DNA of 64,000 nucleotides from Escherichia coli (GTDB taxonomy: Bacteria; Pseudomonadota; Gammaproteobacteria; Enterobacterales; Enterobacteriaceae): assembly GCF_003334815.1 (NCBI RefSeq), contig NZ_QOWO01000007.1; one strand, written 5' to 3'. Each line of letters opens with the position of its first letter. The first letter of the stretch is position 1. The position numbers were made by a program, and so were the translations under genes. The notes below the pieces were generated by a model. It was not told where the DNA came from. It saw nothing but the letters and a program-made list of their open reading frames with translations, and did not search any database. Positions 42,461-61,944 of this stretch are shown piece by piece.

Positions 42461-42482
42461 GCTCATCGTCTAAGGAGTACTT

Positions 42483-43066: not shown

Positions 43067-43074
43067 GGAAAGTT

Positions 43075-43296
43075 ATGAATACTCGCTGGCAACAGGCCGG
43101 GCAAAAGGTAAAGCCTGGTTTCAAATTAGCAGGCAAGCTGGTACTTCTTACCGCACTGCGCTATGGCCCGGCGGGTGTGGCGGGCTGGGCGATAAAATCA
43201 GTTGCTCGCCGACCGCTGAAAATGTTGCTGGCTGTGGCGCTGGAACCGCTGTTAAGTCGGGCTGCTAATAAACTGGCACAGCGTTATAAAAGGTGA
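43075..43296 (+). CDS. pspD: Phage shock protein D
   Basis: 73 aa from ATG 43075 (SD gagga), starting [21 protein letters not shown]... The track begins 4 codons earlier at a GTG. Confidence 0.9.
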
Positions 43297-43370
43297 GGGG
43301 AGTTTCGCAAAAATTGTTAAATCTCAGGCGTATAATGGATGGCAATTTTCATCCATAGAAGGACGCTTAC

Positions 43371-43685
43371 ATGTTTAAAAAAGGCTTACTTGCTCTGGCA
43401 CTGGTGTTTTCACTGCCCGTTTTCGCCGCTGAACACTGGATCGATGTTCGTGTTCCAGAGCAGTATCAGCAAGAGCACGTTCAGGGGGCCATCAATATTC
43501 CCCTGAAGGAAGTGAAAGAGCGCATTGCCACCGCCGTTCCGGATAAAAACGACACCGTGAAAGTGTATTGCAATGCCGGACGCCAGTCAGGGCAAGCAAA
43601 AGAGATCCTTAGCGAGATGGGATATACCCACGTTGAGAACGCCGGTGGCCTGAAAGACATCGCAATGCCGAAGGTCAAAGGTTAA
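43371..43685 (+). CDS. pspE: Periplasmic rhodanese (thiosulfate sulfurtransferase) PspE
   Basis: 104-aa ORF with signal peptide MFKKGLLALALVFSLPVFA and active-site loop CNAGRQS. Confidence 0.95.
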   Translation: MFKKGLLALALVFSLPVFAAEHWIDVRVPEQYQQEHVQGAINIPLKEVKERIATAVPDKNDTVKVYCNAGRQSGQAKEILSEMGYTHVENAGGLKDIAMPKVKG

Positions 43686-43870: not shown

Positions 43871-43885
43871 ATGGGACCGCTACCA
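43871..43885 (+). promoter_or_regulatory. LacI-family operator candidate (YcjW site 1)
   Basis: ATGGGACCGCTACCA has a central CG and half-sites TGGGACC / TGGTAGC (5/7 symmetric). It is identical to 53799-53813 and ends 12 nt before the ycjM ATG. Confidence 0.6.
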
Positions 43886-43897
43886 CGGAAAGGCAAC

Positions 43898-45577
43898 ATG
43901 AAACAGAAAATTACGGATTACCTGGACGAAATCTACGGTGGAACATTTACCGCAACTCATTTACAGAAACTTGTAACGCGTCTTGAGAGTGCGAAACGAT
44001 TAATTACACAGCGACGTAAAAAACACTGGGATGAAAGTGATGTCGTGTTAATTACCTATGCCGATCAATTTCACAGCAATGATTTAAAACCATTACCCAC
44101 ATTTAATCAGTTTTACCATCAATGGCTGCAAAGCATTTTTTCACATGTTCATTTGTTGCCGTTTTATCCATGGTCATCTGATGATGGCTTTTCGGTAATT
44201 GATTATCATCAGGTCGCCAGTGAAGCGGGGGAGTGGCAGGATATTCAGCAACTCGGTGAATGCAGTCATTTAATGTTTGATTTTGTCTGCAACCATATGT
44301 CGGCAAAAAGTGAATGGTTTAAAAACTATTTACAACAGCATCCAGGTTTTGAAGATTTTTTTATTGCCGTTGACCCGCAAACCGATCTCAGCGCCGTCAC
44401 TCGCCCGCGTGCGTTACCGTTATTAACGCCATTCCAGATGCGCGATCATTCAACGCGCCATTTATGGACCACCTTTAGTGACGATCAAATTGACCTGAAT
44501 TACCGTAGCCCTGAAGTGTTGCTGGCGATGGTGGATGTTTTACTCTGTTACCTTGCGAAAGGTGCTGAGTATGTCCGCCTGGATGCCGTTGGCTTTATGT
44601 GGAAAGAGCCGGGAACAAGCTGCATCCATCTGGAAAAAACACATCTGATTATCAAACTGTTACGGTCGATTATTGATAACGTTGCGCCAGGTACAGTGAT
44701 CATTACCGAGACCAATGTTCCGCATAAAGACAACATTGCTTACTTTGGCGCAGGCGATGACGAAGCACATATGGTGTACCAGTTCTCGCTGCCGCCACTG
44801 GTGCTGCATGCGGTGCAAAAACAGAACGTTGAGGCGCTTTGTGCGTGGGCGCAAAACCTGACACTACCTTCCAGCAACACCACCTGGTTTAACTTCCTCG
44901 CCTCTCACGATGGCATCGGGCTAAACCCGCTACGGGGCTTGTTGCCTGAAAGCGAAATATTAGAGCTGGTCGAGGCGTTACAGCAGGAAGGTGCATTAGT
45001 AAACTGGAAAAATAATCCCGACGGTACACGCAGTCCGTATGAAATAAATGTGACCTATATGGATGCGTTAAGCCGCCGTGAGAGTAGCGATGAAGAACGT
45101 TGCGCCAGGTTTATCCTTGCCCATGCGATTTTGTTAAGTTTCCCCGGTGTGCCAGCGATATATATTCAAAGTATTCTTGGCTCGCGTAATGATTACGCAG
45201 GTGTCGAAAAAATCGGATATAACCGTGCGATTAACCGTAAAAAATATCACAGTAAAGAGATAACCCGAGAACTGAACGATGAAGCTACATTAAGGCATGC
45301 GGTATATCATGAGTTGTCGCGTTTAATTACACTTCGTCGCAGCCATAACGAGTTTCATCCGGATAATAATTTTACCATTGATACGATTAATTCATCCGTA
45401 ATGCGTATTCAAAGAAGTAACGCTGATGGTAATTGTCTGACTGGATTGTTTAATGTCAGTAAAAATATTCAGCATGTAAATATTACTAATCTGCATGGTC
45501 GGGATCTGATTAGTGAAGTTGATATATTGGGTAATGAAATAACGCTGCGCCCCTGGCAGGTTATGTGGATTAAATAA
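43898..45577 (+). CDS. ycjM: GH13_18 sucrose-phosphorylase-like enzyme YcjM (reported glucosylglycerate phosphorylase)
   Basis: 559 aa from ATG 43898 (MKQKITDYLDEIYGG...), alpha-amylase-family fold. The track start at 43871 lies within the operator-like sequence. Confidence 0.92.
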   Translation: MKQKITDYLDEIYGGTFTATHLQKLVTRLESAKRLITQRRKKHWDESDVVLITYADQFHSNDLKPLPTFNQFYHQWLQSIFSHVHLLPFYPWSSDDGFSVIDYHQVASEAGEWQDIQQLGECSHLMFDFVCNHMSAKSEWFKNYLQQHPGFEDFFIAVDPQTDLSAVTRPRALPLLTPFQMRDHSTRHLWTTFSDDQIDLNYRSPEVLLAMVDVLLCYLAKGAEYVRLDAVGFMWKEPGTSCIHLEKTHLIIKLLRSIIDNVAPGTVIITETNVPHKDNIAYFGAGDDEAHMVYQFSLPPLVLHAVQKQNVEALCAWAQNLTLPSSNTTWFNFLASHDGIGLNPLRGLLPESEILELVEALQQEGALVNWKNNPDGTRSPYEINVTYMDALSRRESSDEERCARFILAHAILLSFPGVPAIYIQSILGSRNDYAGVEKIGYNRAINRKKYHSKEITRELNDEATLRHAVYHELSRLITLRRSHNEFHPDNNFTIDTINSSVMRIQRSNADGNCLTGLFNVSKNIQHVNITNLHGRDLISEVDILGNEITLRPWQVMWIK

Positions 45578-45590
45578 AAAGGAACATCTC

Positions 45591-46883
45591 ATGATTAAAT
45601 CAAAAATCGTGCTGTTATCAGCACTGGTTTCATGCGCCCTGATTTCAGGCTGTAAAGAAGAAAATAAAACGAATGTATCCATCGAATTTATGCATTCTTC
45701 GGTGGAGCAGGAGCGCCAGGCCGTTATCAGTAAATTGATTGCCCGTTTTGAAAAAGAAAACCCTGGCATCACCGTTAAGCAAGTGCCCGTGGAAGAAGAT
45801 GCCTATAACACTAAAGTCATTACTCTTTCACGTAGCGGTTCGCTGCCGGAAGTGATCGAAACCAGCCATGACTACGCCAAAGTGATGGACAAAGAGCAGC
45901 TTATCGATCGCAAAGCGGTTGCCACAGTCATCAGCAACGTTGGTGAAGGCGCGTTTTACGATGGCGTACTGCGTATTGTGCGTACCGAAGATGGTAGCGC
46001 ATGGACCGGTGTTCCTGTCAGCGCCTGGATTGGCGGTATCTGGTATCGCAAAGATGTGCTGGCAAAAGCGGGGCTTGAGGAGCCGAAAAACTGGCAACAG
46101 CTGCTGGACGTTGCACAGAAACTGAATGACCCGGCGAATAAAAAATACGGCATTGCGCTGCCTACAGCAGAAAGCGTGTTGACGGAACAATCCTTCTCCC
46201 AGTTTGCGTTATCCAACCAGGCTAACGTCTTTAACGCCGAAGGCAAAATCACCCTTGATACACCAGAGATGATGCAGGCACTGACCTATTACCGCGACCT
46301 TGCTGCCAACACTATGCCGGGTTCTAACGACATCATGGAAGTGAAAGACGCCTTTATGAACGGCACCGCGCCGATGGCGATTTACTCCACCTATATCCTT
46401 CCGGCTGTGATTAAAGAAGGCGACCCGAAAAACGTCGGTTTCGTGGTGCCAACCGAGAAAAACTCTGCGGTCTACGGCATGTTGACCTCGCTGACCATTA
46501 CCGCCGGGCAAAAGACCGAAGAGACGGAAGCAGCAGAAAAATTTGTCACCTTTATGGAGCAGGCAGACAACATTGCCGACTGGGTGATGATGTCGCCAGG
46601 TGCTGCGCTGCCGGTGAATAAAGCGGTGGTGACTACCGCCACCTGGAAAGACAACGACGTTATTAAGGCGCTGGGTGAACTACCGAATCAGCTAATCGGT
46701 GAACTGCCAAATATTCAGGTTTTTGGCGCAGTAGGGGATAAAAACTTTACCCGCATGGGTGATGTGACGGGTTCTGGCGTGGTGAGTTCAATGGTGCATA
46801 ACGTCACCGTGGGTAAAGCCGATCTCTCTACTACGCTGCAAGCGAGCCAGAAAAAACTGGATGAACTGATCGAACAGCACTAA
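45591..46883 (+). CDS. ycjN: Sugar ABC transporter substrate-binding lipoprotein YcjN
   Basis: 430-aa ORF with signal peptide and lipobox LISGC, family-1 solute-binding protein. Confidence 0.92.
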   Translation: MIKSKIVLLSALVSCALISGCKEENKTNVSIEFMHSSVEQERQAVISKLIARFEKENPGITVKQVPVEEDAYNTKVITLSRSGSLPEVIETSHDYAKVMDKEQLIDRKAVATVISNVGEGAFYDGVLRIVRTEDGSAWTGVPVSAWIGGIWYRKDVLAKAGLEEPKNWQQLLDVAQKLNDPANKKYGIALPTAESVLTEQSFSQFALSNQANVFNAEGKITLDTPEMMQALTYYRDLAANTMPGSNDIMEVKDAFMNGTAPMAIYSTYILPAVIKEGDPKNVGFVVPTEKNSAVYGMLTSLTITAGQKTEETEAAEKFVTFMEQADNIADWVMMSPGAALPVNKAVVTTATWKDNDVIKALGELPNQLIGELPNIQVFGAVGDKNFTRMGDVTGSGVVSSMVHNVTVGKADLSTTLQASQKKLDELIEQH

Positions 46884-46903
46884 ACCCAGGACAGGAATCC
46901 GCA

Positions 46904-47785
46904 ATGAACAGGCTTTTTTCAGGTCGTTCCGATATGCCCTTTGCGCTGCTGCTTCTCGCGCCCAGCTTATTACTGCTGGGCGGTCTGGTGGCGTGGCCGA
47001 TGGTGTCGAATATCGAAATCAGTTTTTTACGTCTGCCGCTCAATCCCAACATCGAGTCAACGTTTGTTGGGGTGAGCAACTATGTGCGTATCCTCTCCGA
47101 TCCCGGCTTCTGGCATTCGCTGTGGATGACGGTCTGGTATACCGCGCTGGTGGTGGCGGGCAGCACCGTGCTCGGGCTGGCGGTGGCGATGTTTTTCAAC
47201 CGCGAGTTCCGCCTGCGCAAAACCGCGCGTTCGCTGGTGATCCTCTCCTACGTAACGCCGTCCATTTCGCTGGTGTTCGCCTGGAAATACATGTTCAACA
47301 ACGGCTACGGCATTGTTAACTACCTCGGCGTCGATCTTCTGCATCTCTATGAGCAGGCACCGCTGTGGTTCGATAATCCGGGCAGTAGCTTTGTGCTGGT
47401 GGTGCTGTTCGCCATCTGGCGCTACTTCCCGTATGCCTTTATCTCGTTTCTGGCGATTTTGCAGACCATCGACAAATCGCTGTACGAAGCGGCAGAGATG
47501 GATGGCGCTAATGCCTGGCAACGGTTTCGTATCGTCACGCTGCCCGCAATTATGCCGGTCCTGGCGACGGTGGTGACACTGCGCACCATCTGGATGTTCT
47601 ACATGTTCGCGGATGTTTATTTGCTGACGACCAAGGTCGATATTCTCGGTGTATATCTCTACAAAACCGCCTTTGCCTTTAATGATTTAGGAAAAGCGGC
47701 GGCGATCTCGGTGGTGCTCTTCATCATTATTTTCGCTGTCATTCTGCTGACCAGGAAACGGGTGAACCTCAATGGCAACAAATAA
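46904..47785 (+). CDS. ycjO: Sugar ABC transporter permease YcjO (MalF/UgpA type)
   Basis: 293-aa polytopic ORF with EAA-loop region LYEAAEMDGANAWQRF. Confidence 0.92.
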   Translation: MNRLFSGRSDMPFALLLLAPSLLLLGGLVAWPMVSNIEISFLRLPLNPNIESTFVGVSNYVRILSDPGFWHSLWMTVWYTALVVAGSTVLGLAVAMFFNREFRLRKTARSLVILSYVTPSISLVFAWKYMFNNGYGIVNYLGVDLLHLYEQAPLWFDNPGSSFVLVVLFAIWRYFPYAFISFLAILQTIDKSLYEAAEMDGANAWQRFRIVTLPAIMPVLATVVTLRTIWMFYMFADVYLLTTKVDILGVYLYKTAFAFNDLGKAAAISVVLFIIIFAVILLTRKRVNLNGNK

Positions 47786-48614
47786 ACGCACACTCAGTCG
47801 CATCGGTTTTTACTGCGAGCTGGCGCTGTTTCTCATCATCACGCTGTTTCCATTTTTTGTGATGCTGATGACCTCGTTCAAGGGCGCGAAAGAGGCGATC
47901 TCACTGCATCCTACGCTGCTGCCGCAGCAGTGGACGCTGGAGCATTACGTCGACATTTTTAACCCGATGATTTTCCCGTTTGTCGACTACTTCCGTAACA
48001 GTCTGGTGGTGTCTGTGGTTTCATCCGTGGTGGCGGTATTCCTCGGCATTCTTGGGGCTTACGCGCTTTCCCGCCTGCGCTTTAAAGGTCGGATGACCAT
48101 CAACGCCAGCTTTTACACGGTGTATATGTTCTCTGGCATTTTGCTGGTGGTGCCGCTTTTCAAAATCATCACCGCGCTTGGCATTTACGACACTGAGATG
48201 GCGCTGATCATCACCATGGTGACGCAAACTCTGCCCACCGCCGTGTTTATGCTGAAAAGCTACTTCGACACCATCCCCGATGAGATCGAAGAAGCGGCGA
48301 TGATGGATGGCCTCAACCGTCTGCAAATTATCTTCCGCATCACCGTGCCGTTGGCGATGTCCGGGCTGATATCCGTGTTCGTCTACTGCTTTATGGTGGC
48401 GTGGAACGACTATCTGTTTGCGTCGATTTTCCTCTCCAGCGCCAGCAATTTCACCTTACCGGTGGGCCTGAACGCGCTGTTCAGTACGCCAGATTACATC
48501 TGGGGACGGATGATGGCGGCCTCACTGGTGACCGCATTGCCGGTGGTGATTATGTATGCGCTTTCGGAACGTTTTATTAAGAGTGGTTTGACCGCCGGTG
48601 GCGTGAAGGGCTAA
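47772..48614 (+). CDS. ycjP: Sugar ABC transporter permease YcjP (MalG/UgpE type)
   Basis: 280-aa polytopic ORF with EAA loop IEEAAMMDGLNRLQIF. It overlaps ycjO by 14 nt. Confidence 0.92.
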   Translation: MATNKRTLSRIGFYCELALFLIITLFPFFVMLMTSFKGAKEAISLHPTLLPQQWTLEHYVDIFNPMIFPFVDYFRNSLVVSVVSSVVAVFLGILGAYALSRLRFKGRMTINASFYTVYMFSGILLVVPLFKIITALGIYDTEMALIITMVTQTLPTAVFMLKSYFDTIPDEIEEAAMMDGLNRLQIIFRITVPLAMSGLISVFVYCFMVAWNDYLFASIFLSSASNFTLPVGLNALFSTPDYIWGRMMAASLVTALPVVIMYALSERFIKSGLTAGGVKG

Positions 48615-48644
48615 AGCGGCCAGTTTCTTTACAAGGAGTTTTAA

Positions 48645-49697
48645 ATGAAAAAGTTAGTAGCCACAGCACCGCGTGTTGCTGCGCTGGTTGAGTATGAAGA
48701 TCGGGCGATTTTAGCTAATGAAGTGAAGATCCGCGTGCGTTTCGGCGCACCGAAACACGGAACGGAAGTGGTCGACTTCCGCGCCGCCAGCCCGTTTATT
48801 GATGAAGACTTTAACGGCGAATGGCAGATGTTCACTCCGCGTCCGGCAGATGCGCCGCGCGGCATTGAGTTTGGCAAATTCCAGCTTGGCAACATGGTGG
48901 TTGGCGACATTATCGAGTGCGGCAGCGACGTTACCGACTACGCGGTGGGCGACAGCGTATGCGGCTACGGCCCGCTCTCCGAGACGGTCATCATTAACGC
49001 TGTGAATAACTACAAGCTGCGCAAAATGCCGCAAGGCAGCTCCTGGAAAAACGCCGTCTGCTACGACCCGGCGCAGTTTGCCATGAGCGGCGTGCGCGAT
49101 GCCAACGTGCGCGTAGGGGATTTTGTGGTGGTGGTAGGGCTTGGCGCAATCGGTCAAATTGCCATCCAACTGGCTAAACGCGCTGGCGCTTCTGTGGTGA
49201 TTGGCGTCGATCCTATCGCCCATCGCTGTGATATTGCCCGTCGCCACGGCGCGGATTTCTGCCTTAACCCCATCGGCACTGATGTAGGTAAAGAGATCAA
49301 AACGCTGACCGGCAAGCAGGGTGCCGATGTGATTATCGAAACCAGCGGCTACGCCGACGCGCTGCAATCGGCGCTCCGCGGTCTGGCTTATGGCGGCACC
49401 ATCTCCTATGTCGCGTTTGCCAAGCCGTTTGCCGAAGGTTTTAACCTCGGACGCGAAGCGCATTTCAATAACGCCAAAATTGTCTTCTCTCGCGCGTGCA
49501 GCGAACCGAACCCGGATTATCCGCGCTGGAGCCGCAAGCGTATTGAAGAAACCTGTTGGGAACTGCTGATGAACGGTTATCTCAATTGCGAAGATTTAAT
49601 CGACCCGGTGGTGACCTTTGCCAATAGCCCGGAAAGCTATATGCAGTATGTCGACCAGCATCCGGAACAGAGCATCAAAATGGGCGTTACGTTTTAA
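48645..49697 (+). CDS. ycjQ: Zn-dependent medium-chain dehydrogenase YcjQ (reported D-guloside 3-dehydrogenase)
   Basis: 350-aa ORF, MDR family, with NAD-binding GLGAIG. Confidence 0.9.
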   Translation: MKKLVATAPRVAALVEYEDRAILANEVKIRVRFGAPKHGTEVVDFRAASPFIDEDFNGEWQMFTPRPADAPRGIEFGKFQLGNMVVGDIIECGSDVTDYAVGDSVCGYGPLSETVIINAVNNYKLRKMPQGSSWKNAVCYDPAQFAMSGVRDANVRVGDFVVVVGLGAIGQIAIQLAKRAGASVVIGVDPIAHRCDIARRHGADFCLNPIGTDVGKEIKTLTGKQGADVIIETSGYADALQSALRGLAYGGTISYVAFAKPFAEGFNLGREAHFNNAKIVFSRACSEPNPDYPRWSRKRIEETCWELLMNGYLNCEDLIDPVVTFANSPESYMQYVDQHPEQSIKMGVTF

Positions 49698-49715
49698 TTC
49701 AAAGGAATGAAAAAA

Positions 49716-50504
49716 ATGAAAATCGGCACACAGAATCAGGCGTTCTTTCCGGAAAACATTCTGGAGAAATTTCGTTATATCAAAGAGATGGGCTTCGATG
49801 GTTTTGAGATTGACGGCAAACTGCTGGTTAACAACATCGAAGAAGTCAAAGCGGCGATCAAAGAAACCGGTTTACCGGTGACCACCGCCTGCGGTGGCTA
49901 TGACGGATGGATTGGCGACTTTATCGAAGAGCGTCGTCTTAATGGCTTAAAGCAGATCGAGCGCATTCTCGAAGCGCTGGCAGAAGTGGGCGGTAAAGGC
50001 ATCGTCGTTCCGGCTGCGTGGGGCATGTTTACCTTCCGCTTACCGCCGATGACCTCGCCGCGTAGCCTGGACGGCGACCGCAAAATGGTGAGTGATTCCC
50101 TGCGCGTACTGGAACAGGTCGCCGCGCGTACCGGAACCGTGGTGTATCTCGAACCGTTAAACCGCTATCAGGATCATATGATCAACACCCTCGCCGATGC
50201 CCGCCGTTACATCGTCGAAAACGATCTTAAACATGTACAGATTATCGGCGATTTCTATCACATGAATATCGAAGAAGATAACCTGGCGCAGGCGCTGCAT
50301 GACAACCGCGACCTGCTCGGTCATGTGCATATTGCGGATAACCATCGCTACCAGCCGGGCAGCGGCACCCTGGATTTCCACGCGCTGTTTGAACAGCTGC
50401 GCGCGGATAACTATCAGGGCTATGTAGTGTACGAAGGGCGTATCCGGGCGGAAGATCCTGCCCAGGCGTACCGTGATTCGTTGGCCTGGTTGCGTACCTG
50501 CTAA
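49716..50504 (+). CDS. ycjR: Xylose-isomerase-like TIM-barrel epimerase YcjR (reported 3-keto-D-guloside 4-epimerase)
   Basis: 262 aa from ATG 49716. SD aaagga at 49701-49706 fits this start better than ATG 49707. Confidence 0.9.
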   Translation: MKIGTQNQAFFPENILEKFRYIKEMGFDGFEIDGKLLVNNIEEVKAAIKETGLPVTTACGGYDGWIGDFIEERRLNGLKQIERILEALAEVGGKGIVVPAAWGMFTFRLPPMTSPRSLDGDRKMVSDSLRVLEQVAARTGTVVYLEPLNRYQDHMINTLADARRYIVENDLKHVQIIGDFYHMNIEEDNLAQALHDNRDLLGHVHIADNHRYQPGSGTLDFHALFEQLRADNYQGYVVYEGRIRAEDPAQAYRDSLAWLRTC

Positions 50505-50513
50505 GAGGTCTTT

Positions 50514-51569
50514 GTGAAAAGTGCAATGACAAGCTCTCCGCTGCGGGTCGCGATAATAGGCGCAGGCCAGGTGGCGGATAAGGTTCATGCTTCGTACTAC
50601 TGCACCCGCAACGATCTGGAACTGGTGGCTGTCTGTGACAGCCGCCTTTCCCAGGCGCAGGCGCTGGCAGAAAAATACGGGAATGCATCCGTGTGGGACG
50701 ATCCGCAGGCCATGCTGCTGGCGGTGAAACCTGATGTGGTTAGCGTCTGCTCACCTAACCGTTTTCATTACGAACATACCCTGATGGCACTGGAAGCGGG
50801 CTGCCATGTGATGTGCGAAAAACCGCCCGCCATGACGCCAGAACAGGCGCGGGAAATGTGCGATACCGCGCGCAAACTGGGCAAGGTGCTGGCCTACGAC
50901 TTTCACCATCGTTTTGCGCTCGATACGCAACAGCTGCGTGAACAGGTGACCAACGGCGTTTTGGGAGAGATTTACGTTACCACCGCCCGCGCCCTGCGTC
51001 GCTGCGGCGTTCCCGGCTGGGGTGTCTTTACCAATAAAGAACTGCAGGGTGGTGGCCCGCTGATCGACATCGGCATTCATATGCTGGATGCTGCGATGTA
51101 TGTGCTGGGCTTTCCGGCGGTGAAAAGCGTGAATGCGCATAGCTTTCAAAAGATCGGCACGCAAAAGAGCTGTGGTCAATTTGGTGAGTGGGATCCGGCA
51201 ACTTACAGCGTCGAAGATTCGCTGTTTGGCACCATTGAATTTCATAACGGCGGCATTCTGTGGCTGGAAACGTCATTTGCACTCAACATCCGCGAACAGT
51301 CGATTATGAACGTCAGCTTTTGTGGTGATAAAGCTGGTGCGACGCTGTTTCCAGCACATATCTACACCGATAACAACGGTGAATTAATGACGCTGATGCA
51401 ACGGGAAATGGCAGACGACAACCGCCATTTGCGCAGCATGGAAGCCTTTATCAATCACGTACAGGGCAAGCCCGTGATGATAGCCGACGCCGAGCAGGGG
51501 TACATCATCCAGCAACTGGTGGCGGCGTTGTATCAATCCGCAGAAACAGGGACGCGTGTGGAATTATGA
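50514..51569 (+). CDS. ycjS: Gfo/Idh/MocA-family oxidoreductase YcjS (reported D-glucoside 3-dehydrogenase)
   Basis: 351-aa ORF with a GTG start and N-terminal Rossmann motif RVAIIGAGQVA. Confidence 0.9.
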   Translation: MKSAMTSSPLRVAIIGAGQVADKVHASYYCTRNDLELVAVCDSRLSQAQALAEKYGNASVWDDPQAMLLAVKPDVVSVCSPNRFHYEHTLMALEAGCHVMCEKPPAMTPEQAREMCDTARKLGKVLAYDFHHRFALDTQQLREQVTNGVLGEIYVTTARALRRCGVPGWGVFTNKELQGGGPLIDIGIHMLDAAMYVLGFPAVKSVNAHSFQKIGTQKSCGQFGEWDPATYSVEDSLFGTIEFHNGGILWLETSFALNIREQSIMNVSFCGDKAGATLFPAHIYTDNNGELMTLMQREMADDNRHLRSMEAFINHVQGKPVMIADAEQGYIIQQLVAALYQSAETGTRVEL

Positions 51570-53833
51570 CCAGGCCAGTAACGTTATCAGAACCCCATTT
51601 CAGCCAGCATACCCTGAACAAGTATGCATCGCTGATGGCGCAGGGGAACGGCTATCTTGGGCTTCGCGCCAGCCATGAAGAAGATTACACGCGCCAGACG
51701 CGAGGGATGTATCTGGCGGGGCTGTATCATCGGGCGGGAAAAGGTGAAATCAACGAACTGGTGAACCTGCCTGATGTCGTGGGGATGGAGATTGCCATAA
51801 ATGGTGAGGTTTTCTCGTTATCCCACGAAGCCTGGCAGCGTGAGCTTGACTTTGCCAGTGGCGAATTACGCCGCAATGTTGTCTGGCGTACCAGCAACGG
51901 CTCAGGTTACACCATCGCCAGCCGTCGCTTTGTTTCGGCAGACCAACTGCCGCTCATTGCGCTGGAAATCACTATTACGCCACTGGACGCCGACGCGTCA
52001 GTGCTGATTTCAACAGGCATTGACGCCACGCAAACCAATCACGGTCGCCAACATCTCGACGAAACCCAGGTGCGGGTGTTTGGTCAGCATCTGATGCAGG
52101 GGAGCTACACCACCCAGGATGGACGCAGTGATGTGGCCATCAGCTGTTGCTGTAAGGTGAGCGGTGATGTGCAGCAATGCTATACCGCCAAAGAGCGCCG
52201 TTTACTGCAACATACCAGTGCGCAGCTTCATGCAGGCGAGACAATGACGTTGCAAAAACTGGTGTGGATCGACTGGCGGGATGACAGGCAAGCTGCTTTA
52301 GACGAGTGGGGCAGCGCGTCGCTTCGCCAGCTTGAAATGTGCGCGCAGCAGAGTTACGACCAACTTCTTGCAGCATCAACAGAAAACTGGCGTCAATGGT
52401 GGCAGAAACGTCGTATCACGGTAAATGGCGGCGAAGCGCACGATCAGCAAGCGTTAGATTATGCGCTTTATCATCTGCGCATCATGACGCCTGCCCACGA
52501 CGAGCGCAGCAGCATTGCGGCAAAAGGCTTAACCGGCGAAGGCTACAAAGGCCACGTTTTCTGGGATACAGAAGTATTTTTGTTACCGTTTCATCTGTTT
52601 AGCGATCCGACGGTTGCCCGAAGTTTACTGCGTTATCGCTGGCACAACTTGCCAGGCGCGCAGGAGAAAGCGCGACGCAACGGCTGGCAGGGCGCGCTAT
52701 TTCCGTGGGAAAGCGCGCGCAGCGGCGAAGAAGAGACGCCGGAATTTGCCGCCATTAACATTCGCACCGGGCTGCGGCAAAAAGTGGCCTCGGCGCAGGC
52801 GGAACATCATCTGGTGGCCGATATCGCCTGGGCGGTTATTCAATACTGGCAGACCACGGGGGATGAAAGTTTCATTGCGCATGAAGGCATGGCGCTACTT
52901 CTGGAGACGGCAAAGTTCTGGATTAGCCGCGCGGTGAGAGTTAACGATCGTCTGGAAATTCATGATGTTATTGGGCCAGACGAATATACCGAACATGTCA
53001 ATAATAATGCATACACCAGCTATATGGCCCGCTACAACGTTCAACAGGCGCTGAATATTGCCCGCCAGTTCGGCTGTAGCGACGATGCGTTTATCCATCG
53101 CGCCGAAATGTTCCTCAAAGAGCTATGGATGCCAGAAATTCAGCCCGACGGCGTTTTGCCGCAGGATGATTCGTTTATGGCTAAGCCGGCGATTAATCTG
53201 GCGAAATACAAAGCGGCGGCGGGGAAGCAAACCATACTGCTGGATTATTCACGCGCAGAAGTGAACGAGATGCAGATCCTCAAACAAGCTGATGTGGTGA
53301 TGCTCAATTACATGCTGCCGGAGCAGTTCTCAGCGGCATCGTGTCTTGCCAATCTGCAATTTTATGAACCGCGCACTATTCACGACTCGTCATTAAGTAA
53401 AGCAATCCACGGCATTGTTGCCGCACGCTGTGGCCTGCTGACCCAAAGTTATCAGTTCTGGCGCGAGGGGACTGAAATCGATCTTGGTGCTGATCCGCAT
53501 AGTTGTGATGATGGTATCCATGCTGCCGCAACTGGCGCTATCTGGCTGGGGGCGATTCAGGGTTTTGCCGGGGTGAGCGTGCGTGACGGTGAATTGCATC
53601 TCAATCCGGCGTTACCTGAGCAGTGGCAACAGTTGTCTTTCCCTCTGTTCTGGCAGGGCTGCGAATTACAGGTCACTCTTGACGCGCAGCGTATTGCGAT
53701 TCGAACTTCTGCGCCCGTTTCACTGCGTTTGAACGGTCAGCTTATAACCGTGGCTGAAGAATCTGTTTTCTGTTTGGGTGATTTTATTTTGCCCTTCAAT
53801 GGGACCGCTACCAAACATCAGGAGGATGAATGA
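51566..53833 (+). CDS. ycjT: GH65 kojibiose phosphorylase YcjT
   Basis: 755-aa ORF of the GH65 maltose/kojibiose phosphorylase family. It has 4-nt overlaps with ycjS and ycjU. Confidence 0.93.
53799..53813 (+). promoter_or_regulatory. LacI-family operator candidate (YcjW site 2) inside the 3' end of ycjT
   Basis: ATGGGACCGCTACCA is identical to 43871-43885. It ends 16 nt before the ycjU ATG. Confidence 0.6.
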
Positions 53834-54489
53834 AACTGCAAGGGGTAATTTTCGATCTGGATGGTGTAATCACCGATACCGCGCATCTGCATTTCCAGGC
53901 GTGGCAGCAGATTGCCGCTGAAATTGGCATCAGCATTGATGCGCAGTTTAACGAATCCCTAAAAGGGATCAGCCGCGATGAGTCTCTGCGGCGCATTCTG
54001 CAACACGGGGGCAAAGAGGGCGACTTTAACTCGCAGGAGAGGGCGCAACTGGCGTATCGCAAAAATCTGCTCTATGTCCACTCACTACGCGAGTTGACGG
54101 TCAACGCTGTTCTACCCGGCATTCGCTCTTTGCTGGCAGATCTCCGTGCACAGCAGATCTCGGTTGGGCTGGCTTCTGTCTCCCTGAATGCGCCGACGAT
54201 TTTAGCGGCGCTGGAGCTGCGCGAGTTTTTCACCTTCTGCGCGGATGCTTCCCAACTTAAAAACTCGAAACCGGACCCGGAAATCTTTCTCGCCGCCTGT
54301 GCAGGGCTGGGCGTGCCGCCGCAGGCATGTATCGGCATTGAAGATGCGCAGGCGGGCATTGACGCCATTAACGCCAGCGGTATGCGCTCGGTGGGGATCG
54401 GCGCGGGCTTAACCGGGGCGCAATTACTGTTGCCTTCAACGGAATCACTCACCTGGCCGCGGTTATCGGCCTTCTGGCAAAACGTATAG
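53830..54489 (+). CDS. ycjU: Beta-phosphoglucomutase YcjU (HAD superfamily)
   Basis: 219-aa ORF with HAD motif [11 protein letters not shown]. Confidence 0.94.
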
Positions 54490-54502
54490 CAAAGGAATCA
54501 AC

Positions 54503-55585
54503 ATGGCTCAGCTTTCGTTACAACATATTCAAAAAATCTACGATAACCAGGTGCATGTGGTGAAGGACTTCAACCTGGAAATTGCCGATAAAGAGTTCAT
54601 CGTGTTTGTCGGCCCGTCGGGCTGCGGTAAGTCGACCACCCTGCGCATGATTGCCGGGCTTGAGGAGATCAGCGGCGGCGATCTGTTGATCGACGGCAAA
54701 CGAATGAATGACGTTCCAGCCAAAGCACGCAATATAGCGATGGTGTTCCAGAACTACGCGTTGTATCCGCATATGACGGTTTACGACAACATGGCGTTTG
54801 GTCTGAAGATGCAAAAAATCGCCAAAGAGGTGATTGATGAGCGGGTGAACTGGGCGGCGCAAATTCTCGGCCTGCGTGAGTACCTGAAACGTAAGCCGGA
54901 GGCGCTTTCCGGCGGGCAACGTCAGCGAGTGGCGCTTGGGCGGGCGATTGTACGCGAAGCGGGCGTGTTTTTAATGGATGAACCGCTCTCTAACCTTGAT
55001 GCCAAGCTGCGCGTGCAAATGCGCGCAGAGATCAGCAAGCTGCATCAGAAACTGAACACCACCATGATCTACGTGACCCACGATCAGACCGAAGCGATGA
55101 CCATGGCGACGCGGATTGTGATTATGAAAGACGGGATTGTTCAGCAAGTAGGTGCGCCGAAAACCGTTTATAACCAACCCGCGAATATGTTTGTTTCCGG
55201 ATTTATTGGATCACCAGCGATGAATTTTATTCGCGGCACGATCGATGGCGATAAATTCGTTACGGAAACGCTTAAATTAACCATTCCCGAAGAGAAATTA
55301 GCGGTTCTGAAAACACAGGAAAGTTTGCATAAGCCCATCGTGATGGGAATACGACCGGAAGATATTCATCCGGACGCGCAAGAGGAAAATAACATTTCCG
55401 CCAAAATTAGCGTGGCAGAATTAACCGGTGCGGAATTTATGCTCTACACCACGGTTGGGGGGCACGAGTTAGTGGTCCGTGCTGGTGCGTTAAATGATTA
55501 TCATGCAGGAGAAAATATCACTATTCATTTTGATATGACGAAATGTCATTTCTTTGATGCAGAAACGGAAATAGCAATTCGCTAA
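54503..55585 (+). CDS. ycjV: MalK/UgpC-type ABC transporter ATPase YcjV
   Basis: 360-aa uninterrupted ORF with Walker A GPSGCGKST, signature LSGGQRQR, Walker B FLMDEPLSNLD and a C-terminal TOBE-like domain. I recall pseudogene flags for this gene in some K-12 annotations, but the frame is open here. Confidence 0.88.
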   Translation: MAQLSLQHIQKIYDNQVHVVKDFNLEIADKEFIVFVGPSGCGKSTTLRMIAGLEEISGGDLLIDGKRMNDVPAKARNIAMVFQNYALYPHMTVYDNMAFGLKMQKIAKEVIDERVNWAAQILGLREYLKRKPEALSGGQRQRVALGRAIVREAGVFLMDEPLSNLDAKLRVQMRAEISKLHQKLNTTMIYVTHDQTEAMTMATRIVIMKDGIVQQVGAPKTVYNQPANMFVSGFIGSPAMNFIRGTIDGDKFVTETLKLTIPEEKLAVLKTQESLHKPIVMGIRPEDIHPDAQEENNISAKISVAELTGAEFMLYTTVGGHELVVRAGALNDYHAGENITIHFDMTKCHFFDAETEIAIR

Positions 55586-55629
55586 ATACAGGGGGAAGGC
55601 ATTCCCCCAGGATAATACAAGGAACAATA

Positions 55630-56535
55630 ATGAAAAAGTTATTACCCTGTACCGCACTGGTGATGTGTGCGGGAATGGCCTGCGCACAGGCCGAGGAAAG
55701 GAACGACTGGCACTTTAATATCGGCGCGATGTACGAAATAGAAAACGTCGAGGGTTATGGCGAAGATATGGATGGGCTGGCGGAGCCTTCAGTCTATTTT
55801 AATGCCGCCAACGGGCCGTGGAGAATTGCTCTGGCCTATTATCAGGAAGGGCCGGTAGATTATAGCGCGGGTAAACGTGGAACGTGGTTTGATCGCCCGG
55901 AGCTGGAGGTGCATTATCAGTTCCTCGAAAACGATGATTTCAGTTTCGGCCTGACCGGCGGTTTCCGTAATTATGGTTATCACTACGTTGATGAACCGGG
56001 TAAAGACACGGCGAATATGCAGCGCTGGAAAATCGCGCCAGACTGGGATGTGAAACTGACTGACGATTTACGTTTCAACGGTTGGTTGTCGATGTATAAA
56101 TTTGCCAACGATCTGAACACTACCGGTTACGCTGATACCCGTGTCGAAACGGAAACAGGTCTGCAATATACCTTCAACGAAACGGTTGCCTTGCGAGTGA
56201 ACTATTATCTCGAGCGCGGCTTCAATATGGACGACAGCCGCAATAACGGTGAGTTTTCCACGCAAGAAATTCGCGCCTATTTGCCGCTGACGCTCGGCAA
56301 CCACTCGGTGACGCCGTATACGCGCATTGGGCTGGATCGCTGGAGTAACTGGGACTGGCAGGATGATATTGAACGTGAAGGCCATGATTTTAACCGTGTA
56401 GGTTTATTTTACGGTTATGATTTCCAGAACGGACTTTCCGTTTCGCTGGAATACGCGTTTGAGTGGCAGGATCACGACGAAGGCGACAGTGATAAATTCC
56501 ATTATGCAGGTGTCGGCGTAAATTACTCGTTCTGA
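55630..56535 (+). CDS. ompG: Monomeric 14-strand outer-membrane porin OmpG
   Basis: 301-aa ORF with signal peptide MKKLLPCTALVMCAGMACAQA, alternating beta-strand pattern and a C-terminal ...GVGVNYSF. Confidence 0.95.
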   Translation: MKKLLPCTALVMCAGMACAQAEERNDWHFNIGAMYEIENVEGYGEDMDGLAEPSVYFNAANGPWRIALAYYQEGPVDYSAGKRGTWFDRPELEVHYQFLENDDFSFGLTGGFRNYGYHYVDEPGKDTANMQRWKIAPDWDVKLTDDLRFNGWLSMYKFANDLNTTGYADTRVETETGLQYTFNETVALRVNYYLERGFNMDDSRNNGEFSTQEIRAYLPLTLGNHSVTPYTRIGLDRWSNWDWQDDIEREGHDFNRVGLFYGYDFQNGLSVSLEYAFEWQDHDEGDSDKFHYAGVGVNYSF

Positions 56536-56548
56536 TAATGGGCTAAAT

Positions 56549-56624
56549 TGCCGGATGCGGCGCGAGTACTTTATCCGATCTATAAATGTAGGCCGGATAA
56601 GATGCGCTAGCATCGCATCTGGCA
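56549..56624. repeat. BIME: two inverted REP units between ompG and ycjW
   Basis: The two units are tgccggatgcggcgcgagtactttatccga and gtaggccggataagatgcgctagcatcgcatctggca. Confidence 0.8.
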
Positions 56625-56645
56625 TTCAGGCAAGGTAGCTGGTAT

Positions 56646-57644
56646 TTATTTCAGCGTCATATGCGTGGCAACGGTAATATTCTGTGGTGACGGTTTTCCA
56701 GAAATTAAGCGGAATAATAACTCGCAGCTTTGTTGACCTAACTCCTGCGTCGGAACATCGATGCCGCCCGGTGCAGGCGTTAAAATAAATGACAGCGTTT
56801 CATTGCTATAACCCACCACCGCTAACTGCTGCGGAATAGCAATATTTTTCTCTGCTGCCGCACGATAAATGCTCATTAATTTCAGGCTGTCAGTGGCAAA
56901 CACCGCCTCAGGCAACGGTGACTGGCTTAATAATTGCCGTGCTGCTTTTAATGCAGTTTCATGGGTATAACCGCCATCAACAATCCATTCATCACGCACT
57001 GCAATATTATGCGCAGCCAGGCTCTGCTTATAACCATTAACGCGATCAACCGAAACATGGACATCAAGCGGAGCATGCAGGCAGGCAATATTTTGATGCC
57101 CACTTTCAATTAATGCATCGGTCAACGCAATGCTGTCGCCAAAATTATCGGTATCGACAGAATAAACATGGGCATATTGACCTTCAACTTTGCCAATCAC
57201 CACCACCGGAATATCATATTTATCGAGTTGGGCAAAAAATGACTCATCCGCTGGCGAACTGAGCATAATAATGCCTTTAATCATTTTCTGCTTAATTTTG
57301 CTTTCGCATTTTTGCAGATCTTCTGCCGGATTGTGCGACGTTTGTAATATCACGTCGAAACCTTCTTCTTCAGCTTTGGCGGTGATGGCATGCAAAACTT
57401 CAGAGAAAAACGGATTACCCGCCGTAGTTTTGGTCGAACGGGTAGAAATCACCATAATGGCATCAAAACCCGAAGAGGTCAGCGCGCGGGCCAGCTTGTT
57501 TGGCTGATACTGTAATTCTTCAATGGCCCGTAACACTTTTTCGCGCGCTTCCGGGGAGATATTAGTTTGCTTATTCAGCACGCGTGATACGGTGGATTTT
57601 GATACGCCTGCAACCCTGGCAATATCATAAATAGTAGGGGACAT
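56646..57644 (-). CDS. ycjW: LacI-family repressor YcjW
   Basis: 332-aa ORF with [24 protein letters not shown] and a periplasmic-binding-protein-like sensor domain. Confidence 0.94.
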
Positions 57645-57717: not shown

Positions 57718-57745
57718 TTGATAATCAATGGCCTGGCCCCCACAT
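57718..57745 (+). promoter_or_regulatory. Candidate sigma32 (heat-shock) promoter of ycjX-ycjF
   Basis: TTGATA, a 14-nt spacer, then CCCCACAT, which resembles CTTGAAA-N13-15-CCCCATNT. It lies 55 nt upstream of the ycjX ATG. Confidence 0.4.
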
Positions 57746-57799: not shown

Positions 57800-59197
57800 A
57801 TGAAGCGACTTAAAAATGAACTCAATGCGCTGGTGAATCGGGGTGTCGACAGACATCTGCGCCTCGCTGTAACCGGACTTAGCCGCAGCGGCAAAACAGC
57901 GTTTATCACCGCGATGGTTAATCAGTTGCTTAATATTCACGCCGGAGCACGTTTGCCGCTGTTAAGTGCGGTGCGTGAAGAGCGCCTGCTGGGCGTGAAA
58001 CGCATTCCCCAGCGTGACTTTGGCATTCCGCGCTTCACCTATGACGAAGGGCTGGCGCAGTTATATGGCGATCCACCCGCCTGGCCAACGCCAACGCGCG
58101 GCGTCAGTGAAATCCGCCTGGCGCTACGTTTTAAATCGAATGATTCGCTGCTACGCCACTTTAAGGATACCTCCACGCTGTATCTGGAAATTGTGGATTA
58201 TCCCGGCGAATGGTTGCTCGACCTGCCGATGCTGGCGCAGGACTATTTAAGCTGGTCGCGCCAGATGACGGGCTTACTCAATGGTCAGCGCGGAGAATGG
58301 TCGGCGAAATGGCGAATGATGAGCGAAGGGCTGGACCCGCTAGCGCCTGCCGACGAAAACCGGCTGGCGGACATTGCCGCCGCGTGGACCGATTATCTCC
58401 ACCACTGTAAAGAGCAGGGGCTGCACTTTATTCAGCCTGGGCGCTTTGTCTTGCCGGGAGATATGGCAGGTGCGCCCGCGCTGCAATTCTTCCCGTGGCC
58501 GGATGTCGATACCTGGGGCGAGTCCAAACTGGCGCAGGCCGATAAGCATACCAATGCCGGAATGCTGCGCGAGCGCTTTAATTATTACTGCGAGAAGGTG
58601 GTGAAGGGGTTCTATAAGAATCATTTTCTGCGCTTTGACCGCCAGATTGTGCTGGTGGATTGCCTGCAACCTCTCAACAGTGGGCCACAGGCATTTAATG
58701 ATATGCGTCTGGCACTGACGCAGCTGATGCAAAGTTTTCACTACGGGCAGCGTACCCTGTTCCGGCGTTTGTTTTCGCCGGTTATCGATAAGCTATTGTT
58801 TGCTGCCACTAAAGCGGACCATGTGACCATCGATCAGCACGCTAATATGGTTTCATTACTGCAACAACTGATTCAGGATGCCTGGCAAAATGCGGCGTTC
58901 GAAGGGATCAGCATGGACTGCCTGGGGCTGGCGTCAGTTCAGGCGACCACCAGCGGCATTATTGATGTTAACGGTGAGAAAATCCCGGCGCTGCGTGGTA
59001 ATCGACTTAGCGATGGCGCACCGCTCACTGTTTATCCTGGCGAAGTTCCCGCACGTTTGCCTGGTCAGGCGTTCTGGGATAAGCAAGGCTTCCAGTTTGA
59101 GGCATTTCGTCCGCAGGTGATGGATGTCGACAAACCACTACCGCATATTCGTCTTGATGCTGCGCTGGAATTTTTAATAGGAGATAAATTGCGATGA
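57800..59197 (+). CDS. ycjX: P-loop NTPase YcjX (DUF463)
   Basis: 465-aa ORF with Walker A GLSRSGKT near the N-terminus. Its stop overlaps the ycjF start (ATGA). Confidence 0.9.
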
Positions 59198-60255
59198 CCG
59201 AACCGTTAAAACCACGTATTGATTTCGACGGTCCTCTGGAGGTCGATCAGAATCCTAAATTCAGGGCGCAGCAGACCTTTGACGAAAATCAGGCGCAAAA
59301 TTTTGCCCCGGCCACGCTCGACGAAGCGCAGGAAGAAGAGGGGCAAGTCGAAGCGGTAATGGACGCAGCGTTACGTCCGAAACGCAGCCTGTGGCGCAAA
59401 ATGGTGATGGGAGGGCTGGCTCTGTTTGGCGCAAGCGTTGTCGGGCAGGGTGTACAGTGGACAATGAATGCCTGGCAAACCCAGGACTGGGTGGCGCTGG
59501 GTGGATGTGCCGCTGGGGCATTGATTATCGGCGCTGGCGTAGGTTCTGTGGTAACAGAGTGGCGGCGCTTATGGCGCTTGCGACAGCGCGCCCATGAACG
59601 CGACGAAGCGCGTGATTTATTGCATAGCCACGGCACGGGCAAAGGCCGCGCATTTTGCGAAAAACTGGCGCAGCAGGCGGGTATTGATCAGTCGCATCCG
59701 GCGCTGCAACGCTGGTATGCCTCAATCCATGAAACGCAAAACGACCGTGAAGTGGTCAGCCTGTATGCGCATTTGGTCCAGCCAGTTTTAGATGCCCAGG
59801 CGCGGCGCGAAATCAGCCGTTCGGCGGCGGAATCAACGTTGATGATTGCGGTCAGCCCGCTGGCGTTGGTCGATATGGCGTTTATCGCCTGGCGCAATCT
59901 GCGTTTAATTAATCGCATCGCCACGCTGTATGGCATTGAACTGGGGTATTACAGCCGTTTGCGTCTGTTTAAGCTGGTATTGCTGAATATCGCTTTTGCC
60001 GGAGCCAGCGAACTGGTGCGCGAAGTGGGGATGGACTGGATGTCGCAAGATCTCGCTGCTCGTTTGTCTACCCGCGCAGCTCAGGGGATTGGTGCAGGAC
60101 TTCTGACGGCACGACTCGGGATTAAAGCTATGGAGCTTTGCCGCCCGCTGCCGTGGATTGACGATGACAAACCTCGCCTCGGGGATTTCCGTCGTCAGCT
60201 TATCGGTCAGGTGAAAGAAACGCTGCAAAAAGGCAAAACGCCCAGCGAAAAATAA
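59194..60255 (+). CDS. ycjF: Inner-membrane protein YcjF (UPF0283)
   Basis: 353-aa ORF with a hydrophilic N-terminus of about 70 aa followed by TM segments ([40 protein letters not shown], ...). Confidence 0.9.
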
Positions 60256-60314
60256 TGCAATATCGGGTGCTGACCGGATATCTTTACGCCGAAGTGCCCG
60301 TTTTTCCGTCTTTG

Positions 60315-60332
60315 TGTCAATGATTGTTGACA
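60315..60332. promoter_or_regulatory. TyrR box (autoregulatory) overlapping a -35 TTGACA
   Basis: TGTCAATGATTGTTGACA fits the TGTAAA-N6-TTTACA palindrome. It lies 71 nt upstream of the tyrR ATG. Confidence 0.75.
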
Positions 60333-60402
60333 GAAACCTTCCTGCTATCCAAATAGTGTCATATCATCATATTAATTGTTCTTTTTTCAGGTGAAGGTTC
60401 CC

Positions 60403-61944
60403 ATGCGTCTGGAAGTCTTTTGTGAAGACCGACTCGGTCTGACCCGCGAATTACTCGATCTACTCGTGCTAAGAGGCATTGATTTACGCGGTATTGAGAT
60501 TGATCCCATTGGGCGAATCTACCTCAATTTTGCTGAACTGGAGTTTGAGAGTTTCAGCAGTCTGATGGCCGAAATACGCCGTATTGCGGGTGTTACCGAT
60601 GTGCGTACTGTCCCGTGGATGCCTTCCGAACGTGAGCATCTGGCGTTGAGCGCGTTACTGGAGGCGTTGCCTGAACCTGTGCTCTCTGTCGATATGAAAA
60701 GCAAAGTGGATATGGCGAACCCGGCGAGCTGTCAGCTTTTTGGGCAAAAATTGGATCGCCTGCGCAACCATACCGCCGCACAATTGATTAACGGCTTTAA
60801 TTTTTTACGTTGGCTGGAAAGCGAACCGCAAGATTCGCATAACGAGCATGTCGTTATTAATGGGCAGAATTTCCTGATGGAGATTACGCCTGTTTATCTT
60901 CAGGATGAAAATGATCAACACGTCCTGACCGGTGCGGTGGTGATGTTGCGATCAACGATTCGTATGGGCCGCCAGTTGCAAAATGTCGCCGCCCAGGACG
61001 TCAGCGCCTTCAGTCAAATTGTCGCCGTCAGCCCGAAAATGAAGCATGTTGTCGAACAGGCGCAGAAACTGGCGATGCTAAGCGCGCCGCTGCTGATTAC
61101 GGGTGACACAGGTACAGGTAAAGATCTCTTTGCCTACGCCTGCCATCAGGCAAGCCCCAGAGCGGGCAAACCTTACCTGGCGCTGAACTGTGCGTCTATA
61201 CCGGAAGATGCGGTCGAGAGTGAACTGTTTGGTCATGCTCCGGAAGGGAAGAAAGGATTCTTTGAGCAGGCGAACGGTGGTTCGGTGCTGTTGGATGAAA
61301 TAGGGGAAATGTCACCACGGATGCAGGCGAAATTACTGCGTTTCCTTAATGATGGCACTTTCCGTCGGGTTGGCGAAGACCATGAGGTGCATGTCGATGT
61401 GCGGGTGATTTGCGCTACGCAGAAGAATCTGGTCGAACTGGTGCAAAAAGGCATGTTCCGTGAAGATCTCTATTATCGTCTGAACGTGTTGACGCTCAAT
61501 CTGCCGCCGCTACGTGACTGTCCGCAGGACATCATGCCGTTAACTGAGCTGTTCGTCGCCCGCTTTGCCGACGAGCAGGGCGTGCCGCGTCCGAAACTGG
61601 CCGCTGACCTGAATACTGTACTTACGCGTTATGCGTGGCCGGGAAATGTGCGGCAGTTAAAGAACGCTATCTATCGCGCACTGACACAACTGGACGGTTA
61701 TGAGCTGCGTCCACAGGATATTTTGTTGCCGGATTATGACGCCGCAACGGTAGCCGTGGGCGAAGATGCGATGGAAGGTTCGCTGGACGAAATCACCAGC
61801 CGTTTTGAACGCTCGGTATTAACCCAGCTTTATCGCAATTATCCCAGCACGCGCAAACTGGCAAAACGTCTCGGCGTTTCACATACCGCGATTGCCAATA
61901 AGTTGCGGGAATATGGTCTGAGTCAGAAGAAGAACGAAGAGTAA
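60403..61944 (+). CDS. tyrR: Aromatic amino acid regulator TyrR (ACT-PAS-AAA+-HTH)
   Basis: 513 aa from ATG 60403 (MRLEVFCEDRLGLTRELLDLL...), with Walker A GDTGTGKD and a C-terminal HTH. The track start at 60376 is an extension. Confidence 0.96.
   Translation: MRLEVFCEDRLGLTRELLDLLVLRGIDLRGIEIDPIGRIYLNFAELEFESFSSLMAEIRRIAGVTDVRTVPWMPSEREHLALSALLEALPEPVLSVDMKSKVDMANPASCQLFGQKLDRLRNHTAAQLINGFNFLRWLESEPQDSHNEHVVINGQNFLMEITPVYLQDENDQHVLTGAVVMLRSTIRMGRQLQNVAAQDVSAFSQIVAVSPKMKHVVEQAQKLAMLSAPLLITGDTGTGKDLFAYACHQASPRAGKPYLALNCASIPEDAVESELFGHAPEGKKGFFEQANGGSVLLDEIGEMSPRMQAKLLRFLNDGTFRRVGEDHEVHVDVRVICATQKNLVELVQKGMFREDLYYRLNVLTLNLPPLRDCPQDIMPLTELFVARFADEQGVPRPKLAADLNTVLTRYAWPGNVRQLKNAIYRALTQLDGYELRPQDILLPDYDAATVAVGEDAMEGSLDEITSRFERSVLTQLYRNYPSTRKLAKRLGVSHTAIANKLREYGLSQKKNEE

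Follow-up and report, generated by a model that had tools for sequence, protein, structure and literature searches.

What do ycjX and ycjF of Escherichia coli do, and why do these two genes stay together when so much around them changes? We took up this question in a stretch of 64,000 nucleotides (nt) from E. coli (assembly GCF_003334815.1, contig NZ_QOWO01000007.1; hereafter the window), in which both genes lie on the + strand: ycjX at 57800–59197, coding for a 465-residue predicted soluble GTPase of the YcjX/DUF463 family, and ycjF at 59194–60255, coding for a 353-residue, DUF697-containing predicted inner-membrane protein that is assigned to the YcjF/TIGR01620 family. The original prediction, made from the letters of the window, had described them as a translationally coupled pair of a P-loop nucleoside triphosphatase (NTPase) and a membrane protein, and had taken the pair for a core stress module rather than a mobile defence system. 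The answer that we favour, and hold to be probable, is that the two proteins together form a GTPase switch, stoichiometric and membrane-anchored, that operates under inner-membrane stress. The pair as such is an annotated, already-known component of the E. coli core and not a discovery of the present analysis: the genes, their pairing, their sigma32 control, their association with the psp genes and the structure of a homologue have all been published.

Conservation and overlap of the ycjX–ycjF pair

The identity of the two genes is clear from their open reading frames, from family profiles and from the RefSeq annotation. YcjX is matched by Pfam PF04317 (DUF463, "YcjX-like family") at E = 7e-181 (602.5 bits; cut-off 25), with residues 20–464 aligned to positions 1–443 of the 443 in the profile, whereas YcjF is matched both by Pfam PF05128 (DUF697; E = 1e-55, 188.1 bits; cut-off 27.7) and by NCBIfam TIGR01620 (E = 1e-129, 432.8 bits; cut-off 160). 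Given these E-values, ycjX and ycjF are real genes and not chance open reading frames, and the names that they had been given from the sequence agree with Pfam, TIGR01620 and RefSeq alike. The 2.8 kb stretch that holds them matches, at 100% identity, E. coli chromosomes on which RefSeq calls the genes ycjX and ycjF; of 5426 complete E. coli genomes, 5416 contain it, with a median of one place per carrying genome, and 5412 of its 5418 places are chromosomal. An Rfam scan returned no match within ycjX–ycjF.

The junction between the genes (59180–59197, + strand) is a compact one. The ycjX stop codon TGA (59195–59197) overlaps the ycjF start codon ATG (59194–59196) in an ATGA at 59194–59197, and the ycjF Shine–Dalgarno sequence, GGAG at 59180–59183, lies 11–14 nt upstream of that ATG, inside the last codons of ycjX. 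The codons for the invariant C-terminal GDKL of YcjX, GGAGATAAATTG (59180–59191), include this Shine–Dalgarno sequence, and a GG(A/G)GATAAA..ATG arrangement is also present in four distant loci with YcjF identities of 28–36%, that is, in all the lineages checked. It may be that the GDKL protein motif and the ribosome-binding site constrain each other.

We traced the pairing through two samples: the 80 closest loci found via YcjX, one per species, all from Enterobacterales and 83–99% identical; and eight distant YcjF representatives of 28–39% identity, to which tblastn searches against plasmid and chromid records were added. Among the former, ycjF comes directly after ycjX in 79 of 79 assessable loci (the contig of the 80th ends too early), and 78 of these 79 have the ATGA overlap, the exception being a locus with a frameshifted ycjX. 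Among the latter, the DUF463 gene overlaps the ycjF start in all eight, in seven by 4 nt and in one by 7 nt. Further afield, the pair occurs with a 4-nt overlap in Sinorhizobium (Alphaproteobacteria), it is present in Pasteurella, and the coordinates of the matches in Azospirillum fit neighbouring genes. In sum, every one of the 89 assessable pairs from other genomes adjoins and 87 overlap (86 by 4 nt, one by 7 nt); the same adjacency was reported by Huvet 2011. In the plasmid collection, too, the families are found together, the records numbering 102 and 90 and coming from almost the same taxa. The pair is a real, conserved core module. The stop/start overlap that the original prediction had read from the sequence is present, and the 4-nt form that permits coupling is kept in nearly all pairs; the genomic survey that it had called for finds the pairing maintained from Gamma- to Alphaproteobacteria, and no loss of it was observed.

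These results bear directly on the possibility that the two proteins have independent functions, YcjX being a soluble stress GTPase that acts in the cytoplasm, on the ribosome or on translation factors for instance, in the manner of the heat-shock GTPase HflX, and YcjF an unrelated membrane protein that happens to share its transcript. Mere co-transcription rarely persists so long, whereas the universal pairing with its 4-nt overlap extends from Alpha- to Gammaproteobacteria while all other neighbours change, and the co-occurrence of the families in the plasmid collection points the same way. What speaks for such a separation is that ribosomes are the target of many bacterial TRAFAC GTPases, that YcjX has no membrane segment and its homologue was crystallised on its own, and that the searchable literature yielded no data on a YcjX–YcjF interaction. 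Taking both sides together, we regard independent functions as unlikely.

YcjX as a predicted GTPase and YcjF as its proposed membrane partner

The Walker A motif GLSRSGKT, which the original prediction had placed near the YcjX N-terminus, is present there (G1; residues 26–33, 57875–57898, + strand), and its G26, G31 and K32 are invariant in an alignment of 22 YcjX proteins that reaches down to 36% identity. The label of a P-loop NTPase stands to that extent, but the narrower class had been missed. A G3/Walker B motif, DYPGE, with a glutamate following the DxxG (residues 133–137, 58196–58210, + strand; D133 to W138 invariant in alignments), and a G4 guanine-specificity motif, TKAD (residues 337–340, 58808–58819, + strand; K338 and D340 invariant and T337 nearly so), are likewise conserved, and by these motifs YcjX is predicted to be a GTPase specifically. 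Over the 22 proteins the consensus reads GxxxxGK[ST] for G1, DYPGEW for G3 and [TS]KxD for G4, each invariant or nearly so, and E137 of the DYPGE is invariant.

YcjX is 47% identical over its full length (E = 1e-123) to the "YcjX stress protein" of Shewanella oneidensis, for which crystal structures are available (PDB 6NZ4, 6NZ5 and 6NZ6; Tsai et al., J Mol Biol 2019). Both are DUF463 proteins with all G motifs in common; they differ in that the Shewanella protein comes from another host order and that its structure covers YcjX alone and not the pair. From this solved homologue, E. coli YcjX would be expected to bind and hydrolyze GTP. With no hydrophobic segment (maximum KD19 1.14), it is predicted to be a soluble GTP-binding protein composed of a Ras-like G domain and helical regions. 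A YcjX profile searched against the PDB found YcjX itself as the sole match, and Pfam searched up to E = 10 gave no second family for it, the other line being a chance-level esterase match (E 0.12); at the sequence level, the family stands alone.

YcjF starts with a hydrophilic and acidic tail (residues 1–66, with 14 D+E versus 7 K+R), after which the hydropathy profile shows hydrophobic helices at about 67–95 and 99–121 and a third hydrophobic stretch at 213–233. The two helices make up a predicted transmembrane helical hairpin (residues ~67–121; 59392–59556, + strand), recovered by hydropathy and also by an AlphaFold2 model that is all-helical throughout (predicted local distance difference test, pLDDT, 86; predicted template modelling score, pTM, 0.74) and that has helices at 66–95 and 99–144 with pLDDT above 90. 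The DUF697 domain (residues 183–341; 59740–60216, + strand) is the most conserved part of the protein and is modelled as two long helical hairpins (196–220/224–245 and 252–282/289–316), giving an overall architecture of an N-terminal transmembrane hairpin and a C-terminal DUF697. The stretch at 213–233 is usually read as a third transmembrane helix; in the AlphaFold2 model, by contrast, it does not span the membrane but is the tip of the first DUF697 hairpin, with the turn at the near-invariant S221–P222. The layout originally proposed for YcjF, a hydrophilic N-terminus of roughly 70 residues followed by several transmembrane segments, thus keeps its first part and its transition into the membrane, but the several segments come down to two clear helices and a modelled helix-turn-helix tip.

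A library-wide search at E <= 1e-3 delimits a YcjF family of 1472 clusters at 50% identity, and a scan of its longer members for extra domains or GTPase fusions found none. Over 67 diverse members the mean share of the commonest residue rises from 26% in the N-terminal tail to 56% in DUF697, and D200, D227, R234, Y246, S292, G298 and R317 are invariant. YcjF has no solved relative. Annotations of DUF697 extend to staphylococcal and cyanobacterial proteins, and its appearances in the searchable literature are incidental mentions only. A sub-threshold Pfam match of YcjF to EcsC (E 0.027) was treated as noise. In other DUF697 proteins the domain is joined to a GTPase domain, but we do not use this as evidence here.

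Promoter, psp locus and tyrR

Upstream of ycjX we found a sigma32-type promoter motif, TTGATAA-N13-CCCCACAT, at 57718–57745 (+ strand), the -10 element of which stops 54 nt short of the ycjX ATG; the reference for such promoters is CTTGAAA, a spacer of 13–15 nt and CCCCATnT. It is the single match to TTGAWA-N12-15-CCCCAYNT in the entire window (expected 0.03), and similar motifs, mostly ending ~42–53 nt before the ATG, are present upstream of ycjX in 56 of 80 cases, 79 of them related loci and one the present window, as against 12% of shuffles. The unique motif agrees with the statement in the original prediction that the pair belongs to the sigma32 regulon, and so does Nonaka 2006, as cited in PMC3041696, which places ycjX in it. 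Further, ycjX is among the heat-shock genes in PMC10044804, RegulonDB, cited in the same PMC3041696, gives ycjXF-tyrR as one transcription unit, and both RNA and protein of ycjX and ycjF are reported to rise during phiX174 infection and lysis, alongside those of psp and heat-shock genes.

A second regulatory setting had escaped the original prediction, namely that the ancestral position of ycjXF is at the end of the psp (phage shock) locus. The gene order in the window is pspF, pspABCDE, ycjMNOPQRSTUV, ompG, ycjW (divergent), ycjX, ycjF, tyrR, tpx (divergent), ycjG and mpaA. The pspABCDE operon, the ancestral upstream neighbour, occupies 41761–43685 (+ strand; open reading frames and annotation), and between the end of pspE at 43685 and ycjX lies a ~14 kb sugar-utilisation cluster of ycjM..ycjV with ompG and ycjW (~43871–57644), so that the pair is here separated from the psp operon by this cluster and by the divergent ycjW. 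Elsewhere, in 52 of 78 Enterobacterales species, ycjX comes immediately after the same-strand genes pspABCD(E); pspE adjoins ycjX without the sugar-cluster insertion in 373 of the 5426 complete E. coli genomes; and psp genes are found upstream of ycjX in three of the eight distant loci. In Kluyvera, Kosakonia, Erwinia and Pantoea the psp–ycjX gap is just 7–64 nt, a length that leaves no room for a separate ycjX promoter. The ~14 kb cluster behaves as an insertion into an ancestral psp–ycjXF locus. The published counterpart of the contiguous state is the pspABCD-ycjXF operon of Yersinia enterocolitica, studied in the Darwin laboratory, which has orthologous genes and exemplifies the psp-adjacent condition of the Enterobacterales majority. 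In contrast, the pair in the window lies ~14 kb from pspE, behind the divergent ycjW and with a sigma32-type promoter of its own, and for these reasons is not a member of the psp operon.

Several smaller observations concern this upstream region. Some Citrobacter and Klebsiella loci (L006 and L069) have ycjW directly upstream of pspE, with pspE alone between the sugar cluster and ycjX. The ycjV open reading frame (54503–55585), coding for a 360-residue ATPase of an ATP-binding cassette transporter, is intact in the window and annotated as frameshifted in the K-12-like ER1709. A sub-threshold Rfam match to naRNA4 at 56591–56656 (- strand; 35.9 bits versus a gathering score of 59.5), between ompG and ycjW, is probably a REP-type repeat. 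Just upstream of the DUF463 gene, two distant loci without a psp operon carry unannotated small open reading frames without Pfam hits, at 4394–4615 in L082 (73 residues) and at 2824–3009 in L086 (61 residues).

On the other side, the linkage to tyrR (60403–61944, + strand; annotation), the conserved downstream neighbour, had also been overlooked: a gene for a TyrR-type regulator comes after ycjF in 64 of 75 Enterobacterales loci, in four of the eight distant loci and in Pasteurella. Such linkage raises the prospect that ycjXF are leader genes of a ycjXF-tyrR operon, relaying a membrane or amino-acid signal to sigma54-family regulators of the TyrR type, the more so as a scan of the + strand between ycjF and tyrR (60255–60400) found no terminator-like site and RegulonDB records the joint unit. 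We nevertheless consider it highly improbable, in that pairs lacking a nearby TyrR-type regulator occur in Pleionea, Sinorhizobium and others, and tyrR has an operator-like palindrome, and presumably a promoter, of its own in the 147-nt gap. Nor are YcjX and YcjF known to take part in any TyrR input.

As to the details of this flank, tyrR starts with the ATG at 60403 and not with the TTG at 60376 of the open reading frame list, and an inverted repeat TTTGTGTCAA/TTGACAGAAA (core TGTCAATGATTGTTGACA) at 60311–60336, in the ycjF–tyrR gap, is TyrR-box-like. In five distant gammaproteobacterial loci (L082, L084, L086, L088 and L094) ycjXF is followed by a gene for a TyrR/PhhR-type sigma54-family regulator that combines Sigma54_activat and HTH_50 and in some cases also has ACT/PAS; the gene that stands between ycjXF and the regulator in L084 codes for a phenylalanine hydroxylase.

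Defence, mobility and the proposed switch

A distinct line of thought starts from the GTPase itself. Kaur et al. 2020 (Kaur, Burroughs, Iyer and Aravind) defined the DO-GTPases by a glutamate in Walker B after the DxxG, and Ravi et al. 2024, with overlapping authors, assigned the psp-linked GTPase to that family. The DO-GTPase/GAP1 conflict systems resemble ycjXF in having a TRAFAC-type GTPase with the conserved Walker B glutamate (E137 in YcjX) and in being often tied to transmembrane proteins and the membrane. From this placement one could picture YcjX as a DO-GTPase-like sensor controlling YcjF as a membrane-disrupting effector, with abortive infection as the outcome. An NTPase next to a transmembrane protein is a common abortive-infection layout; the induction of the pair in phiX174 infection and, on a Sulfurospirillum plasmid, the location of a degraded YcjX/DUF697 pair beside genes for Sir2, a macro-domain protein, a phosphoesterase and a transposase would be in keeping with the idea.

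The gene neighbourhoods, however, tell against it. Unlike the DO-GTPase/GAP1 systems, ycjXF shows neither a patchy distribution nor, by gene content (no dedicated GAP1 profile was used), a GAP1 partner, a second paralogous GTPase or variable effectors: the gene downstream of YcjX always codes for DUF697, there is a single GTPase gene and the neighbours are constant housekeeping genes. The flanks in the window are also housekeeping genes, with mobility genes absent from them; control is by sigma32 or psp and not of a defence-island context; and a search of PADLOC-DB 2.0 at E <= 0.01 gave no match for YcjX or YcjF. Together with the near-universal and chromosomal presence in E. coli noted above, the synteny in Enterobacterales and the passenger status of the plasmid copies described below, this led us to reject the mobile-defence reading, in support of the original call of a core stress module; an anti-phage role for the pair appears very unlikely.

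Two sets of plasmid copies deserve mention in their own right. Firstly, a chromosomal block larger than 19 kb, comprising ycjQ..ompG, ycjW, pspE, ycjX, ycjF, tyrR, tpx, ycjG, mpaA and mppA, is present on 55 conjugative megaplasmids of the IncHI2A type (e.g., at positions 199812–219206 of the Enterobacter hormaechei plasmid pFJMB80011_1, L091). Within it, ycjW, pspE and ycjX follow one another as they do in Citrobacter werkmanii (L006). Plasmids thus do carry ycjXF, though as a passenger within chromosomal DNA that they have captured. Secondly, the 38 kb plasmid pSDIE1 of Sulfurospirillum diekertiae (L093, 20549–30833) has a YcjX gene broken into fragments, together with a DUF697-like remnant, and neighbours coding for Sir2, an S24 peptidase, a macro-domain protein, a metallophosphoesterase and a transposase, a conflict-island-like setting unlike the core setting elsewhere.

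We therefore return to the membrane-anchored GTPase switch, for which we envisage the following course of events. The two genes are co-transcribed, in the E. coli window from the predicted sigma32 heat-shock promoter and in many relatives, instead, as the last genes of a psp operon under the control of PspF and sigma54. The stop/start overlap would couple their translation, and matched amounts of the two proteins would thus be expected. YcjF might then anchor YcjX at the inner membrane in a physical complex, within which the GTP/GDP cycle of YcjX could switch the conformation or the assembly state of the YcjF membrane domain or of DUF697, with a consequent effect on the membrane. Being made under heat (via sigma32) or under membrane stress (via psp, in many relatives), the pair would act in the response to inner-membrane or protein-folding stress. 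In favour of a link to membrane stress are the psp genes upstream of ycjX in so many loci, the Yersinia operon and the joint rise with psp in phiX174 infection.

Several points weigh against this proposal. Non-polar deletions in Yersinia gave robust phenotypes only for pspF, pspA, pspB and pspC, and none is therefore attributed to ycjXF, which is not a core component of the Psp system. Huvet 2011 described the linkage of psp and ycjXF as loose, having been repeatedly gained and lost, and found that the two answer different signals in E. coli. Structure searches with YcjF found no functional analogue. Finally, the standard topology with three transmembrane helices would put DUF697 in the periplasm, beyond the reach of YcjX. 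Against this last point, DUF697 probably faces the cytoplasm, judging by two features, the AlphaFold2 hairpin at 196–245 and the richness of this region in arginine and lysine.

A more specific proposal would make of YcjX and YcjF a split, GTP-driven machine for membrane remodelling or repair, dynamin- or atlastin-like and working beside PspA. GTPases that remodel membranes with helical or hairpin membrane parts, such as the bacterial dynamin-like IniA and LeoA and the eukaryotic atlastin, are among the closest known systems. By analogy, the helical hairpins of DUF697 might dip into the cytoplasmic leaflet like reticulon/atlastin-type hairpins or a dynamin paddle, and the GTP cycle of YcjX might drive the assembly of the hairpins or membrane curvature. 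The pair would then be a second arm of inner-membrane repair next to PspA, the bacterial ESCRT-III, and its recurrent linkage to psp would thereby be explained. We regard this machine as doubtful.

Whatever its exact mode of action, ycjXF is a member of the E. coli heat-shock regulon that is conserved from Alpha- to Gammaproteobacteria, and is of interest to students of envelope stress. If the membrane-anchored switch proves true, it would add a nucleotide-driven component to the management of inner-membrane stress alongside PspA, and DUF697 would gain its first function.

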